From positions 96,001 to 160,000 of the forward strand of contig CAVXVG010000026.1 of NCBI GenBank assembly GCA_963765145.1: 64,000 nt of DNA, written 5' to 3'. Positions 2,442 to 62,496 of this stretch are shown here, piece by piece (position 1 is the stretch's first letter; each line of letters starts with the position of its first letter). A program made the position numbers and the translations under genes. Under the pieces are notes generated by a model. That model was not told the DNA's origin and did not search any database. It was given only the letters and a program-made list of their open reading frames with translations. This stretch comes from Parachlamydiales bacterium. Lineage in GTDB: Bacteria > Chlamydiota > Chlamydiia > Chlamydiales > JAJFMK01.

Positions 2442-3251
2442 TTACTTTTCAGGGTTTAAGAGGCTTTTGATCGGTTCACCCTTACGGTAAAGATCATTCA
2501 TCGAGGCTTGGGCTTGGGGGAAAATGATGATTTCGGCGATGTTGACGTGAGGTGGCCGTGTTAAGCAATAGCAAACGGCGTCTGCGATGTCGTCAGCGAC
2601 TAGTGGATCAAAACCTTCGTACAATTTCTTGGCCCGTTCTTTGTCTTTCCACCTGACTTCACTAAATTCAGTTTCAACAGCTCCCGGATCCACTTCACTG
2701 ACTCGAAGGGCAGATCCCATCAGGTCTATGCGCATCGATTGGCTGATGGCTTTAACAGCATGTTTTGTCGCAGAGTAAACATTACCTGCCCGATAGGTTC
2801 CGTGACCAGCAATTGAGCCGATGTTGACAACATGACCTCGATTTCTCCTCACCATGGAGGGGAGAAAAGCCCTTGTCACATACAATAACCCCTTGATATT
2901 GGTGTCGATCATCGTATCCCAATTTTTGACATCAGCCTCTTGCATCAAGTCGGTGGTCAGGGCAAGGCCAGCATTGTTAATCAAGATATCGATTTCAATT
3001 TTTTTACTATCAAGCGTTTTGAGAGTTTCTAGAACCTGCTCATGACTTTGTACATCAAGTTGAACAGGAAAGACCTTTACACCATGTTTTGCAGAAAGTT
3101 CTTCTCCGATTTTTTCTATCCTTTCAAGTCTTCTTGCGGCAATAACCAAATTTACACCAAGTGCAGCCAGCTGTTCTGCGCAAGCTTTGCCTATTCCGCT
3201 GGATGCCCCGGTTACCAATGCAGTTTGCCCGGCAATTGAAGATCTTTTCAT
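2442..3251 (-). CDS. SDR oxidoreductase, YdfG-like
   Basis: TGASSGIG, NNAG, YSATK, PGAVETEFSEVR, PPHVNI. Confidence 0.92.
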   Translation of the reverse strand: MKRSSIAGQTALVTGASSGIGKACAEQLAALGVNLVIAARRLERIEKIGEELSAKHGVKVFPVQLDVQSHEQVLETLKTLDSKKIEIDILINNAGLALTTDLMQEADVKNWDTMIDTNIKGLLYVTRAFLPSMVRRNRGHVVNIGSIAGHGTYRAGNVYSATKHAVKAISQSMRIDLMGSALRVSEVDPGAVETEFSEVRWKDKERAKKLYEGFDPLVADDIADAVCYCLTRPPHVNIAEIIIFPQAQASMNDLYRKGEPIKSLLNPEK

Positions 3252-3350
3252 TTAGACAGCCTTTCTTTAAACTCGGCATCTTATGATGTGTAATATTTAC
3301 AAAACAAGACGTCGTAAACCTTGCCATCAAACAAATAATTTTTTCGCTTT

Positions 3351-3796
3351 AGCGTTTGGAGTGTTAAACTCCTGAGACACTTGCAAAAATCAGAATGAAC
3401 TCTGGTAAAGCTCTTAACATCTCTTAAGGGCTTTTGGTAACAATATAAAAATAACAGGATGAACAAGATGAACAGGATAAGCTCTGCCTGCATTCTATTT
3501 TTTTATCATGTCTATCATGTTTATCCTCTTAATCATGTATTTTCTATTACGTTACAAGAAACATGATAGATGGGATATGCATGATAGACATGATAAAAAA
3601 ATAGAATGCAGGCAGAGCTTATCCTGTCGCCGTAGGCGATCCTGTTCATCCTGTTATTTTTATAGGAAGCTTTTCCTTAGGTTAATGCAATGCATGTGGG
3701 CCTATTTCGGTCTGAATTTTGCAAGTATCTCTCCTGTTTAGCTTTGACTTATCAGTGAAAGTGAAAGGCTAAACGGGCTCAGGAGCACTCCAAACG
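3351..3796. repeat. Nested palindrome complex: family A interrupted by family B, which contains nonamer palindromes D and E
   Basis: A left arm 3351-3373 resumes at 3732-3796; see findings. Confidence 0.85.
3374..3731. mobile_element. MITE-like element, family B copy 1
   Basis: Terminal IRs gagacacttgcaaaa / ttttgcaagtatctc, flanked by direct repeat TCCT (3370-3373, 3732-3735). Confidence 0.75.
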
Positions 3797-3805
3797 AGCT
3801 GCGGA

Positions 3806-3997
3806 CTAAAACAAGGGGCTTTCATCGAACAGATTTAGGTCTTTGATGGCATTCTCATCAGAGGCGTTCTCTTTTGCCACATCCTCTTGGATAGGCTCCA
3901 ATTTGATCCCTTGACGTTCGTCTTCTGCCAATGCCTCTAGCACCGCATTCATCAAAGGGTCGGGCGCAGGATGATCGAAATTTGGAAGATTGCTCAT
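3806..3997 (-). CDS. Small acidic hypothetical protein
   Basis: ATG at 3997 with GAGGTG RBS, directly after the stop of 4000..5898. Confidence 0.55.
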   Translation of the reverse strand: MSNLPNFDHPAPDPLMNAVLEALAEDERQGIKLEPIQEDVAKENASDENAIKDLNLFDESPLF

Positions 3998-3999
3998 GC

Positions 4000-5898
4000 T
4001 CACCTCTTTATTTCCCAAAGGCTTTTATTTTGGTTATGAAGGTCAACTTGCGCTTGTATTTTCGCGTCTGTTGCCTCTGGCATGCCAGCTTGTAGCACTT
4101 TTGTTGTGAGTGCAACGTCCTTGTCTTCAGCAGTTTTTGCTGCAAGAAAGTTCTTTGCTTCTTGGATGCCGGCATCGCTTAAAATGCGAAGGCGTACTCT
4201 AACATCAGGCGTTACATTTCTTATGATGCCAACTGCAGCATTGCCTGCTTCTTCAGATCCCATTCTGAATAGGTTATAAAGCCCTTGAAACCCTCTGCCC
4301 CCTCCAGCATCTTTATAAGCTCGAAGTGCCATGGCACCTGCAAATCTGAATTCTTCTGATTTTTTTGGGTTAGTTGGGTCTGCTTTAAGATCTTTGGCTG
4401 CAAGGTGCATCTGTTTTTCATAAAGAGCACCCATGGCTAAATAAGCATCCTGCTTCTGTTCTTTAAGGCTCGTTTGTTCCAGTGACGCTTCTGCAAAACC
4501 TATCGCTTTTTCAAGAGTGGCTTTCCGTTTTTCCGGAGTTGACCAATCGCCATAGCTAAAATAGAGGTCGGCAACGATCAGCCCTCCAAGCGTGTTACCC
4601 CGGTCAGCTGCATACCTGGCCCACAGCATGGCCTTTTCTTCTAGCTGATGAGCAGCAGTCATTTCTCCTGTCAGTTCAGCCTTTTCAAGGCCACCATCTT
4701 CTGCAAGAGCGCTTTTAATGGCATCCGTTAATTTCATCCCGTTAGCTATTTTAGCGTTCACATCGAGAACAAACGGATCGGGAGGAGTGGTTTTTTCGTT
4801 TAGATAGTAGTGCTTAAGTGCCAGAGCGGGGATTTTCTGCTCATGGACATAGTGGGCATGGTCTTTTAGATCACGCGCATATTGACCTGCATAATGGGGA
4901 TTTTTGAGAAACGGCTTAAGGTTATTTTCTAACTTAGTAAAACGTGCATCGATGTCATTAATCTTGGCTTCCAGATCCCAAGTCACATTAACCGGTTTGG
5001 CAGCCAGAGCATCCCGATCCAGATGCCCATGAACTGTTTGGGAGACATTACTGCTACTTAATGCGAAAGCATCAGCCCTTTCTAACGTCTCGTTTAACGT
5101 GTCTCTTTCCCCCCGTAGCTCTGTCTGTTGCGAATTTCTTCTCCCTTGATCAATGACGCCAAGACCTACATTTTTGAAAAAGCCGCGCGACATGCCTGCT
5201 TCCGACATAGCTTTAGAATCTTTCTTTGTAAATTCCGCTACGTTTGCATCCTTAATTTTACCACCCTCTAAATATCTTCCCTTCAAAAACTCTTCCGCAC
5301 CTGCTACTTTTTCATCGGTTGTTTTCACTTCTTTTTTCTTAAAGAAATCTTTAAAAATGCTCTTAGCTTTACCAGCTGCGCTTATTTCCTTTTGCACATG
5401 TGTTTGTACTGTTGCGGGAGCAGCTGGCTCTTCTGCGACTGATGGTGTTGCCGTAGGAGTGGTATGTGGTGCCTGAGGAATGGTATTGGTTTGTGTTTCT
5501 GCGAGTGTGCCGGGAGGAATAGGTGTTCCGCGCAGAAGAGCAGATCTTTCAGCCTCTCGTGCTTGCAATCTCGCCTCTCTTTGCGGATCAGGCGTAGGTT
5601 CGTCTCCTTTTGAGAACTCCTCAACCTGAGCGTCAGTTAGTTCAGCCATTTGCCCTGCGTACTTCACTTCCAACTCTTCAAACACTTTGAATTCATGATT
5701 ATTCAAGGTGAGACTAGATTCTGTAGCTTGATTGTGATGCTTTAGAACTTTTATTAATACATCCTGCTGAGCTGAAGTTAATTCATTAAAATGTTCATAG
5801 ACTGCATCGTTGTCGAGACCTTTAGTTTGTTCTACATATCCTTTAGAAACTGCTTCTGTACGGGGATTAAAACCACCTGTATTCCCTGCAACGCTCAT
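4000..5898 (-). CDS. Hypothetical protein, effector-like, with helical TPR/Sel1-like C-terminus
   Basis: 632-aa ORF; Pro/Thr-rich linker; segments such as AYLAMGALYEK. Confidence 0.8.
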   Translation of the reverse strand: MSVAGNTGGFNPRTEAVSKGYVEQTKGLDNDAVYEHFNELTSAQQDVLIKVLKHHNQATESSLTLNNHEFKVFEELEVKYAGQMAELTDAQVEEFSKGDEPTPDPQREARLQAREAERSALLRGTPIPPGTLAETQTNTIPQAPHTTPTATPSVAEEPAAPATVQTHVQKEISAAGKAKSIFKDFFKKKEVKTTDEKVAGAEEFLKGRYLEGGKIKDANVAEFTKKDSKAMSEAGMSRGFFKNVGLGVIDQGRRNSQQTELRGERDTLNETLERADAFALSSSNVSQTVHGHLDRDALAAKPVNVTWDLEAKINDIDARFTKLENNLKPFLKNPHYAGQYARDLKDHAHYVHEQKIPALALKHYYLNEKTTPPDPFVLDVNAKIANGMKLTDAIKSALAEDGGLEKAELTGEMTAAHQLEEKAMLWARYAADRGNTLGGLIVADLYFSYGDWSTPEKRKATLEKAIGFAEASLEQTSLKEQKQDAYLAMGALYEKQMHLAAKDLKADPTNPKKSEEFRFAGAMALRAYKDAGGGRGFQGLYNLFRMGSEEAGNAAVGIIRNVTPDVRVRLRILSDAGIQEAKNFLAAKTAEDKDVALTTKVLQAGMPEATDAKIQAQVDLHNQNKSLWEIKR

Positions 5899-20483: not shown

Positions 20484-20495
20484 TTCCGCCAATAA

Positions 20496-20629
20496 CCCTT
20501 GCCCCTCCCCGTGCCCTTGCCCTTGCCCGATTTTTTTTAAGCAGGAAGTTTTTGCATTGTTGTTAAAACAGAAATGGGATTAATGATTTTTAGGGCAAGG
20601 GCAAGGGCAAGGGCAAGGGCAAGGGCAAG
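20496..20629. repeat. Inverted hexamer arrays (CCCTTG)n ... (GGGCAA)6
   Basis: Seen directly, between convergent genes. Confidence 0.9.
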
Positions 20630-20630
20630 T

Positions 20631-21779
20631 TTATTTTGCGAATATCAGACTGAGAAGGAAAACGATGAAGGTGGGGGTTTTTACCCACTTGAAGCCGGTC
20701 AGCTTGTATAGCATGTTAAAAATGGCAAGGGTGATAAGGGCAGGATAAAAAACCATCAGGATGGGGGCCAAAAAGGCCATGATCCCTGTGAACTCCAGAG
20801 TCGAAAAGAAGTAACTGATCAGAAGCGTGACAATAAGGCAGGCGCCAAAGCTAACTTTATCAAACAAAAGTTCTTTCTGTAAAAAATCGGCAAAAACAGC
20901 TGATAGGGCAATAGCTGTCGTTAAACAGGCTAAAGCCACTGCAACGCAGGCAATGATGCCGGCAAATGGACCCAGAATTTCAATAGCTAAAGCCCCAAGA
21001 TAGGCCTCAGGCTTTGTTTGGCTTAAAACGGAAGGCCAATGGGAGGCCACCATGCCAAGTCCAATGTAAACAAGGCTTAAAGCTAATCCGCCGATGAGGC
21101 TTGCTTTCAGTGATTCTTTCACAATCGCTTTAGGTTCAGCTTCACTTTGTTTTGTCGCGTTCATTGCTATGGCGGAAACAATGATTGCAGAGAAGAACGG
21201 GGTGGCTAAAAGGTCCATCGTTTGATACCCCTCGTTCAGACCTGCGACAAAGGCGTGCCCTGCAGTTAAAGTAGAGGGGGAAGAGACGCCTGTGATGACC
21301 CCTTTGACGATGATAATAACAAGTGAAAGCAAAAGGAGGGGGGTTAAAACAGTGCCGATTAGTTCAATGATCTTGTTTTTTCTTACTGTCAGTAAGTAGA
21401 TCAGGATGCAAGAAAAGAAGCTAAAAAGAGGGAGCGACAAGGTAGGGTAAAACATCTTGGTTGTCGCATAAGATAGAGTGATGGTTCGAGGAAGTGCCCC
21501 AAAAGGGCCGATCAATGCCAAGATAAGTACAGTTAAAATAAATCCCGGCCATTTGCCCAGCCGTCCAAAAAAAGCGTCATAATCACCGCCAAAAAGGACC
21601 ACAGAAATCAGCCCTAAAAAGGGGACGCCTACAGCTGTGACCAGCAGCCCTAAAATGCCCCAGAAATGGGCATCTTGTGCCAAATGTCCAACGGATAAGG
21701 GATAAACAACGTTGCCTGCCCCAAAAAACATGGCAAACATCGCAAGACCGGTCTTTAGCGTGTTCGATTTCAGTGTCAT
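20631..21779 (-). CDS. brnQ: Branched-chain amino acid transporter
   Basis: FAMFFGAGN, IGPFGALPRT, GYQTMDLLA, ACLTTAIAL. Confidence 0.93.
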   Translation of the reverse strand: MTLKSNTLKTGLAMFAMFFGAGNVVYPLSVGHLAQDAHFWGILGLLVTAVGVPFLGLISVVLFGGDYDAFFGRLGKWPGFILTVLILALIGPFGALPRTITLSYATTKMFYPTLSLPLFSFFSCILIYLLTVRKNKIIELIGTVLTPLLLLSLVIIIVKGVITGVSSPSTLTAGHAFVAGLNEGYQTMDLLATPFFSAIIVSAIAMNATKQSEAEPKAIVKESLKASLIGGLALSLVYIGLGMVASHWPSVLSQTKPEAYLGALAIEILGPFAGIIACVAVALACLTTAIALSAVFADFLQKELLFDKVSFGACLIVTLLISYFFSTLEFTGIMAFLAPILMVFYPALITLAIFNMLYKLTGFKWVKTPTFIVFLLSLIFAK

Positions 21780-29493: not shown

Positions 29494-29798
29494 TTGCCAC
29501 GGGTTAAAACCCGTGGTAACAAGCTCGGATTAAAGAGCCATTTGCAAAAATCAGTCTTAGCTCAAAATAGACTTGTATGCATTGCATTAACCTAAGGAAA
29601 AGCTCCCTATAAAAATAACAGGATGAACAGGATGAACTCTGCCTCGCCTTATCGTTTTGTAAACAGAAAATTATTTTAATTGGCGAAGCTTATCCTGTTC
29701 ATCTTGTTCATCCTGTTATTTTTATATTTTAACCAAAAGCCCTCAGGTAGGTGTTAAGAGCTTTATTAGCTAATCGCTGAGTTCCATTCTGAGCTAAA
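29494..29798. repeat. Partial family C palindrome plus family B copy 2 containing family D
   Basis: ccacgggttaaaacccgtgg core; TAAA then gagccatttgcaaaaatcag at 29535; interior flanks match the reverse complement of 3390-3710; right IR lost. Confidence 0.8.
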
Positions 29799-32574: not shown

Positions 32575-32965
32575 TGTAGCTTAGGCTTTAGAGGTACTTG
32601 CAAAAATCGGATTGTTGGCTTTTTTTTAGAAACAGGTCCGAAGGACCGAAATATGAAAGCCCAGCGCCGAAGGCCTGGGTTACAAATGTGAAATAAAATT
32701 GGAGTCCTGAAAGGACGGCATAAAATATCTCCTGTAGTGTTTGTGGAACAGGATATGTCGTCCCTTCAGGACTCCAATTTCTATTGGCATACTTACCCTG
32801 GCCTTCGACCAGGGCTTTCATATTTCGGCCCTTCGGGCCTGTTTCTGAGCTTAATCTGATTTTTGCAAGTGGCTCTTTAGCCTGAGCTTGTTTTTGCAGG
32901 TTTTAACCTGCATTACCACAGGTTAAAACCTGTGGAAACGAGCTCAGACTAAAGTCTAAGCTACA
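32575..32965. repeat. Family C palindrome interrupted by family B copy 3
   Basis: Arms tgtagcttaggcttta[B]tttagcctgagcttgttt and aaacgagctcagactaaagtctaagctaca; core ccacaggttaaaacctgtgg. Confidence 0.85.
32591..32875. mobile_element. MITE-like element, family B copy 3
   Basis: Terminal IRs gaggtacttgcaaaaatc / gatttttgcaagtggctc, flanked by TTTA (32587-32590, 32876-32879); REP-like interior. Confidence 0.75.
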
Positions 32966-35217: not shown

Positions 35218-35359
35218 AACCACAGAGGCAGTGAGATCACAGAGGAAAGACGAGAATAATGAGACGGGGAGACGCAGTGAAGGAATTTCAATGTCCTTAC
35301 CAAAAAAATGGCTCTCAACGCCCTCATCTTTTCTCTGTGATCTCACTGCCTCTGTGGTT
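35218..35359. repeat. Inverted repeat with 27-bp perfect arms
   Basis: aaccacagaggcagtgagatcacagag ... ctctgtgatctcactgcctctgtggtt, between convergent genes. Confidence 0.9.
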
Positions 35360-47608: not shown

Positions 47609-47704
47609 CGCGTTAGCGTTTGGAGTGCTAAACTCCTGTTTAGCTTTCACTTTCACTGATAAGTCAAAGCTAAACAGGAGTTTAGCACTCCAAACGCTAA
47701 CGCG
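47609..47704. repeat. Family A palindrome, perfect 39-bp arms and 18-nt loop
   Basis: cgcgttagcgtttggagtgctaaactcctgtttagcttt-cactttcactgataagtc-reverse complement. Confidence 0.95.
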
Positions 47705-58397: not shown

Positions 58398-58602
58398 AAT
58401 AACAGGATGAACAAGATGAACAGGATAAGCTTCGCCTACGTTAGATCATTTTGAGTACTTTTTTAACGCGAAGATCGCGAAGAAGTGCGAAGACCTTCTC
58501 ATTTGCTTAAAGTTATATCAATGGTAAGAGACGGGTCCTTCTTTTGTTGTTATAAAAAAAATTTCTTTAGTGGGCGGAGCTTATCCTGTTCATCCTGTTA
58601 TT
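58398..58602. repeat. Family D nonamer palindrome, stand-alone
   Basis: aataacaggatgaacaagatgaacaggataagcttcgcc ... ggcggagcttatcctgttcatcctgttatt. Confidence 0.85.
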
Positions 58603-62399: not shown

Positions 62400-62496
62400 C
62401 GCGGTAGCGTTTGGAGTGCTCCTGAGCCCGTTTAGCTTTGACTTATCAGTGAAAGTGAAAGCTAAACAGGAGTTTAGCACTCCAAACGCTACCGCG
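62400..62496. repeat. Family A palindrome with mixed arm types
   Basis: Left arm variant cctgagcccg, right arm caggagttt; same 18-nt loop. Confidence 0.92.

Follow-up and report, generated by a model that had tools for sequence, protein, structure and literature searches.

An intergenic locus in a Parachlamydiales genome carries four palindromes lying one inside the other, which raises the question of whether each level is a separate insertion or whether several of them arrived together. We analysed the locus within a window of 64,000 nucleotides (G000:C26:96001-160000) of assembly G000, which comprises 2.68 Mb in 37 contigs and is 84.8% complete. Contigs of this assembly are given by C numbers, and positions without a contig number are those of the window. 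The initial annotation had explained the nest as independent non-autonomous elements inserting successively into each other. Our results indicate that the nest is likely the outcome of one targeted MITE insertion, one older capture of a palindrome and an internal rearrangement of that cargo, not of four independent jumps.

Layout of the nested palindromes

The nest is flanked on one side by a dehydrogenase gene (2442-3251, minus strand), and on the other by an ORF of 70 codons whose end is at 3806. The outermost palindrome (A) starts about 10 bp beyond the stop codon of this ORF. The features are as follows.

2442..3251, minus strand: neighbouring gene, short-chain dehydrogenase (context only)
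3351..3373, no strand: left piece of the REP-like palindrome A, ending in the first TCCT (3370-3373), read from the sequence
3374..3731, plus strand: MITE B, subfamily B1, 358 bp, non-coding, with ends common to the IS1182-like element G000:C27:207333-208791
3374..3390, plus strand: left terminal inverted repeat of B, 17 bp, GAGAC variant
3715..3731, minus strand: right terminal inverted repeat of B, 15 of 17 bases as in the left one
3417..3688, no strand: palindrome D and the degenerate flanks outside it (approximate limits); a member, without gene, of the nonamer family associated with GxxExxY
3453..3488, plus strand: left arm of D, three AACAGGAT-type units with a period of 9, then the AAGCTCTGCC core
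3505..3540, minus strand: inner left arm, four ATCATGT-type units forming an outward-facing D-type arm
3538..3560, no strand: centre of the inner palindrome, its best match being the outer flank of a stand-alone D
3561..3594, plus strand: inner right arm, ACATGAT-type units
3611..3655, minus strand: right arm of D, GGCAGAGCTT core, then three ATCCTGT units
3627..3639, no strand: small hairpin TCGCCGTAGGCGA, an 11-nt core in place of the 2-nt linker between two ATCCTGT units
3732..3796, no strand: second TCCT (3732-3735) and the remainder of palindrome A
3806..4018, minus strand: neighbouring short ORF of 70 aa, putative gene (context only)

The outermost level proved to be as annotated: a 358-bp insert (3374-3731) splits the left arm of A, and TCCT can be read directly on both sides of it (3370-3373 and 3732-3735). 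The terminal inverted repeats of the insert match at 14 of 15 bases over the length first quoted for them, and at 15 of 17 when extended. Removal of the insert and one TCCT restored an 84-nt palindrome with 97.6% identity to an uninterrupted copy (G000:C24:32032-32114), and the rebuilt junction was spanned by 204 BLAST hits at about 126 loci. The ends of A lie at 3353-3363 and 3786-3796. The nonamer arms of D, the inner palindrome and the small hairpin in the right D arm were all present where they had been placed, and so were the stand-alone copies of A at 47609 and of D near 58398. The arm pairs of D (3444-3469 and 3639-3664) are 96% complementary, and the 75-nt arms of the inner palindrome (3472-3546 and 3553-3627) are 88% complementary. 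D-like flanks extend to about 3417 and 3688, so that D occupies most of B, the boundary having been judged by eye. The DNA fold of 3345-3805 had a free energy of -141 kcal/mol (z = -21.5), and none of 100 shuffled sequences folded equally well.

B belongs to a MITE family found in the loops of REP-like hairpins

The assembly was scanned for the B end motif, which gave 86 hits forming 34 pairs. Before counting, six of these pairs were set aside, five because they were composite or had paired by chance and one because the element had other ends, leaving 28 complete elements. The annotation had expected 4-bp duplications around other family B copies, and such a duplication was exact in 20 of the 28 (6 of the 9 complete B1 copies); seven elements had inverted 4-nt flanks and one had neither. 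The targets were a GTAG-type REP in 23 cases, A in four and another site in one, so that 27 of 28 elements lie in the hairpin loop of two REP-like families. The Y1 genes at C5:119344 and C28:46907 have the GTAG-type REP in their flanks. In most rebuilt sites of either repeat (18 of 20), the duplicated bases make up the loop closed by a 6-8-bp stem. A degenerate motif common to both targets fits 166 other sites; the motif alone therefore cannot explain where B copies are located. The B ends also differed with the target: those inside A had an A at position 4 (GAGA) in 7 of 8 cases, versus 1 of 46 in the other REP (Fisher p = 3.5e-7, a value that overstates the difference, the copies being related).

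All but one of the 28 elements are MITEs, the exception being autonomous. The MITEs are 163-358 bp long and contain no transposase gene, and only chance-sized ORFs overlap B. They fall into three subfamilies, B1 (9 complete and 3 partial copies), B2 (15) and B3 (3), of which B1 and B2 have about 35 bp in common at one end. The cargo of B2 is a RAYT-type doublet, and the B2 interior matches each flank of the Y1 gene at C24:56771 with 81-85% identity. Two further copies were seen in the window, namely a B1 copy with only one recognisable end (29535-29790) and, between TTTA duplications, a complete copy of B2 (32591-32875). A 162-bp element elsewhere (G000:C5:102987-103148) has an interior 82% identical to B3 and no duplication; its ends differ from those of B and resemble those of the transposase relative in genome G103 described below.

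At three loci of G000 (C5:75768-76293, C29:131683-132333 and C36:44477-45046), B elements occur in pairs, either next to each other or one in each arm of a single REP doublet. Such paired elements are likely precursors of the inverted-flank copies, whose flanks would be the remainder after one B had replaced the interior of a REP doublet.

An IS1182-like transposase is the likely partner of B

The autonomous element (C27:207333-208791) is 1459 bp long, has B-type ends and a TAAA duplication, and encodes a 381-aa protein; it was the sole match in the assembly. Its ends are GAGCC/GAGGC, versus the GAGAC variant inside A, and it has only the first ~17 bp in common with the MITEs. The protein contains DUF772 (PF05598) and DDE_Tnp_1 (PF01609) domains, both above cut-off. 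The best family model was IS1182 (NF033551) with 119.8 bits, which is under the cut-off of 270 bits and makes the protein IS1182-like only. The closest plasmid relatives were 39-46% identical, and 9 of 15 plasmid hits were named IS1182. As judged from sequence, B was probably moved in trans by an IS1182-type DDE transposase, and the GAGA ends inside A point to a sibling transposase that may have been lost or left unassembled.

Relatives of the transposase were then compared for their targets. A 95%-identical transposase on a metagenome contig had the same ends, and its right flank was the same GTAG-type REP. Among 300 genomes of the phylum that were scored, this one included, 12 had a relative at E < 1e-40. 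In genome G282, all six scored copies of a 44%-identical transposase (L116, L120, L124, L126, L128 and L130) interrupted a RAYT-type REP at its centre and had a 5-bp duplication; REPs of this type are the cargo of subfamily B2 in our assembly. In genome G103, six scored copies of a 57%-identical relative (L109, L119, L123, L125, L127 and L129) were in six unrelated sites, five of them with a 4-bp duplication, indicating that not all of the clade targets REPs.

The target palindrome A is REP-like

Palindrome A is an abundant intergenic hairpin made of an inverted doublet. Its arms gave 348 hits, which fall into 217 clusters; 117 pairs face inward, and 84 pairs measure 80-99 bp. There were 168 unoccupied CTAAAC-N4-GTTTAG sites, 161 of which had TCCT or AGGA in the middle. 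A ends were found near none of the six Y1 transposase loci searched in the 85%-complete assembly for a cognate RAYT, and among 13 Y1 loci of relatives one (L141) was bracketed by a GGAGTGC end similar to A. On this account we call A REP-like and assign it no proven partner.

One arm variant of A (62406-62490 and 3768-3796) starts with the duplicated TCCT, after which comes GAGCC, identical to the five bases at the start of a common B end; this may be a footprint or a coincidence. Between both ends of another A palindrome (G000:C29:69534-70726) lies a different transposase gene.

Palindrome D is associated with GxxExxY genes

The assembly contains 52 inward-facing D doublets, 43 of them outside the 11 listed B1 spans. 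One lies just upstream of the only GxxExxY gene of the genome (C5:106981-107319; PF13366). The six closest relatives of the encoded protein come from Chlamydiae, Chlamydiales or Parachlamydiaceae/Parachlamydiales. We examined the best 80 of 175 GxxExxY relatives, which represent many phyla, and D-type arms were present within 200 bp in 74 of these 80 loci (both sides in 59, inward-facing in 49), versus 8 of 144 control windows 450-680 bp away from the genes. The 80 loci are related through the gene and do not count as independent. An earlier arm test had given 26 of 80 against a mean of 18.7 in a cross-pair control, which was uninformative because GxxExxY loci share the motif, and the distant-flank control was used instead.

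The partner gene of D is thus GxxExxY/PF13366 and not an HUH Y1 transposase, so that D is REPIN-like in its working at most and not a member of the REPINs. D is best read as a gene-less form of a GxxExxY cassette that would have been captured once by the ancestor of B1, and the GxxExxY nuclease would be what moves D. The function of the family (GxxExxY/PDDEXK_3; TIGR04256, PF13366) is given as unknown in the available text of PMC3424549, and no description of repeats flanking these genes was found in the literature searched, outside which lay most subscription papers.

At one GxxExxY locus (L028:671-1707) the gene is followed by a tandem array, with a period of 205 bp, of D-type arms with small hairpins. 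Two palindromes in the window (35218-35359 and 20487-20640) have arms built of short tandem words of other sequences and are possibly sister families of D.

D probably travelled inside B and was altered there

The annotation treated D, the inner palindrome and the small hairpin as elements that had inserted one after another at this site. For D this was not supported: its position within B did not vary among the 9 complete B1 copies, and the targets of these copies did, indicating a single acquisition of D, after which it was carried along by B.

The inner palindrome failed as an independent element as well. It was present in the window copy, in the copy at C27:237751 and, truncated, in that at C7:3340, all three being related B1 copies; it was never found alone in the assembly, and its arms are D-type arms facing outward. 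The order of four arms was seen in 2 of 162 arm clusters, again only the window copy and C27:237751. In a B1 tree of ten copies, from which the spacer was left out and the partial copies at C7 and C29:149700 were omitted, these two were sisters with a support of 84 (336 of 358 columns identical), and the other eight copies had a short spacer; the inner arms therefore look derived. Units of the CATGAT type occur as ordinary inward-facing arms in at least 5 other genomes of the order; the pattern matched 13 of 200 other genomes, several of them by chance as single hits. The 23-nt inner centre scored highest against the outer flanks of D (29, 28 and 28 among 86 flanks), followed by D spacers (24 among 388 windows) and the spacers of two sister B1 copies (21 and 16). 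The simplest reading is that the inner palindrome would consist of two D-type ends placed back to back. The truncated copy (G000:C7:3340-3700; L003) is cut inside the inner palindrome by a sequence that we take to resemble the 3' end of a group II intron.

In the window copy the outer 45 bp show perfect symmetry, and a matched change distinguishes both arms from those of C27:237751 (CT/CT versus CC/CC), which suggests copying from arm to arm. Genome-wide, the left-right agreement of D cores was modest (21 of 47 versus 14.8 expected, p = 0.029, related copies included).

Small hairpins were found 31 times in D linkers, in 8 sequences; B1 spans contained 11 of them, and 20 lay elsewhere. Of 27 occurrences of the four commonest cores, 26 were next to a D unit and the last one lay between D-like half units. 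The hairpin replaces the 2-nt linker and leaves the number of units unchanged, and it was also found at 5 of the 80 GxxExxY loci. Most of the hairpins have a G-N-A loop, a type of DNA mini-hairpin that is very stable. These results indicate that D arms vary in their linker and that the small hairpin is one such variant, not a separate element.

Origin of the nest and alternative explanations

On the evidence above, successive independent insertion stands for the outermost step, in which B entered A with a true 4-bp duplication, and for the fact that A and D each occur alone; it is not supported for D, the inner palindrome and the hairpin as separate insertions here. Whether the shells occur alone had been put forward as a genome-wide check: A and D did so, and the inner palindrome and the small hairpin did not. 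The 358-bp element lies in the 4-nt loop of a REP-like hairpin, and we consider it probable that it was put there in trans by an IS1182-type DDE transposase and already carried a D that had been captured once.

Three steps would lead to the present arrangement. In step 1, a small precursor MITE would have gained a gene-less D palindrome and founded subfamily B1, and the sister lineage B2 would have gained a RAYT-type REP doublet instead. A cargo-free precursor was not found by the end-motif scan of the assembly, in which the shortest paired element measured 163 bp, and the capture of D by B is for this reason deduced. In step 2, to judge from the tree, one B1 sublineage would have exchanged the short D spacer for two D-type ends placed back to back, and symmetry of the outer 45 bp would have arisen, probably through arm-to-arm copying. 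In step 3, the composite was evidently cut and pasted into the TCCT loop of A, as the duplication and the empty alleles show; the enzyme was presumably that encoded at C27:207333-208791 or a close sibling that the 85%-complete assembly lacks, the sibling being somewhat likelier for the copies inside A. Most likely, the nest itself is parasite debris that is neutral and lies safely between genes.

No orthologous empty site came up in a DNA search of the genomes of 40 relatives, the matches being repeat arms and short pieces of the flanking gene only, and in the same-genus genome G001 the dehydrogenases were just 24-34% identical. Contigs of related strains (runs X2, X4, X6 and X7) track the window to 3309-3310 and then continue as two other sequences, none reaching 3800.

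Among the alternatives, one that we regard as possible, with a probability well short of even, is that D and the inner arms together are what remains, without its gene, of a GxxExxY cassette that had four arms (doublet, gene, inverted doublet) and recombined in place of the B1 spacer. Three of the 80 GxxExxY loci have a doublet on each side, and loss of the gene from such a locus would yield the same arm order; the better fit of the inner centre to D outer flanks than to D spacers or to the two sister B1 spacers also agrees with this origin, although the score margins are small for a 23-nt A+T-rich string. However, the sole GxxExxY gene in the assembly has a single upstream doublet, and a donor with these inner arms was not found there. 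This alternative alters step 2 of the preferred sequence of events only.

A bolder extension, which we hold to be doubtful, is that D would represent an undescribed REPIN-like system moved by GxxExxY PD-(D/E)XK nucleases, the inner arms and the outer-flank centre being the fossil of an excised, end-joined circle that recombined into the sister copy. If true, IS1182-like MITEs would ferry such palindromes into other mobile palindromes, making up a three-way parasite network.

The model of four or five independent non-autonomous elements, each inserted into another, is improbable as an account of the whole nest. A and D are indeed independent families, the inner-type arms are known from other genomes of the order, and the small hairpin varies among B1 copies in presence and sequence. 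A genuine nest of unrelated palindromes also exists in this genome, since the stand-alone D at C18:51813-52184 has a RAYT-type REP doublet in its spacer. Against these points stand the single position of D across all B1 copies, the restriction of the outward-facing inner palindrome to 3 B1 copies, the ordinary inward-facing use of the same units elsewhere in the order, and the hairpin cores, which adjoin a D unit almost throughout and appear in the arms at GxxExxY loci. For the two inner levels in this assembly, the model is largely refuted.

We rate as similarly improbable the explanation that the long hairpin has been retained for a function, such as terminating or stabilising a transcript that reaches the dehydrogenase gene from the ORFs upstream. 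The genes on both sides are co-oriented, the hairpin begins shortly past a stop codon, and its fold is very stable; but a scan gave no terminator-like site inside the element, and beyond 3310 the related strains carry other sequence. A promoter or terminator role was rejected, the region containing one promoter-like and one terminator-like site, which is the chance level. A known structured RNA was rejected too, as none of 24 Rfam matches reached the gathering score and all 24 were generic miRNA hairpins. Eight public runs contain 5-10% of the words, and none of these runs is recorded as RNA.

Finally, an assembly artefact of collapsed repeats is very improbable, for although the assembly is repeat-rich with its 37 contigs and no public contig spans the whole nest, a second full copy lies in another A site with 12 substitutions and 10 gap columns, the target duplication is exact, and a related-strain contig covers the inner palindrome (3505-3599) with 9 differences.

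Comparison with known systems

Insertion sequences that target REPs are established, with IS1397, ISKpn1, IS621, ISPsy8, ISPa11, ISPpu9/10 and ISRm22 named in the available parts of PMC1525189 and PMC3184786. As in B, the repeat is there described as broken at one fixed point on the palindromic axis with a short duplication left behind. The families given in those parts are IS3, IS110, IS4, IS256 and IS5, whereas the transposase here is IS1182-like. Mismatched flanks of such copies, for example of ISRm22, are put down to recombination or adjacent deletion, and hybrids are discussed, in the part of PMC1525189 available. In contrast to these systems, 27 of 28 copies here are MITEs, and one family of ends occurs in two unrelated repeats, in equivalent 4-nt loops. 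The top level of the nest adds a clear new case to a phenomenon that is already known, in which REP hairpins offer a safe place of insertion to an insertion sequence and the MITEs that go with it. It extends REP targeting to an IS1182-like clade in which the habit is present in some lineages and absent in others, so that the origin of target specificity becomes testable. No description of an IS1182-like REP-targeting MITE family was found in the literature searched, outside which lay most subscription papers and ISfinder, and the available text of PMC10433421 had no bearing on the nest.

Prokaryotic MITEs with the ends of an intact insertion sequence, such as Nezha and IMU, are described in the accessible parts of PMC3184786 and PMC10969869. 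Like B, they are given there as shorter than 400 bp, with the terminal inverted repeats of the intact element, a target duplication, no transposase and a stable fold. B differs from them in that its interior is not derived from the partner element beyond ~17 bp and in that the cargo filling two of the three subfamilies is a palindrome that belongs to a different mobile system. The ssr9 module of ISPpu9, as far as PMC12288879 was available, is likewise non-autonomous and spreads by the transposase of a REP-targeting insertion sequence; it has IS110 chemistry, circular intermediates and an sRNA cargo, whereas B has a DDE-type enzyme and a 4-bp duplication. MITEs filled with the palindrome of another system mean that unrelated repeat families can spread each other.

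REPINs and RAYTs offer the third comparison. In the part of PMC3116915 consulted, REPINs are abundant intergenic doublet hairpins, as A is, and REPIN clusters are said to arise by REPINs inserting into or next to REPINs; unlike in that system, no Y1 gene with A ends was found in the assembly. D relates to GxxExxY genes as REPINs in that account relate to RAYT genes, but its partner is a PD-(D/E)XK protein and not an HUH enzyme, and its arms are tandem nonamers. Within the GxxExxY/PDDEXK_3 family, a D doublet lies upstream of the sole member in this genome and the same arms flank relatives across phyla, whereas the D of the window element carries no gene. The cargo D suggests a substrate hypothesis for the GxxExxY nuclease family, a link that is the least explained and is independent of this locus. 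The GxxExxY-linked cargo is the more interesting part of the nest.
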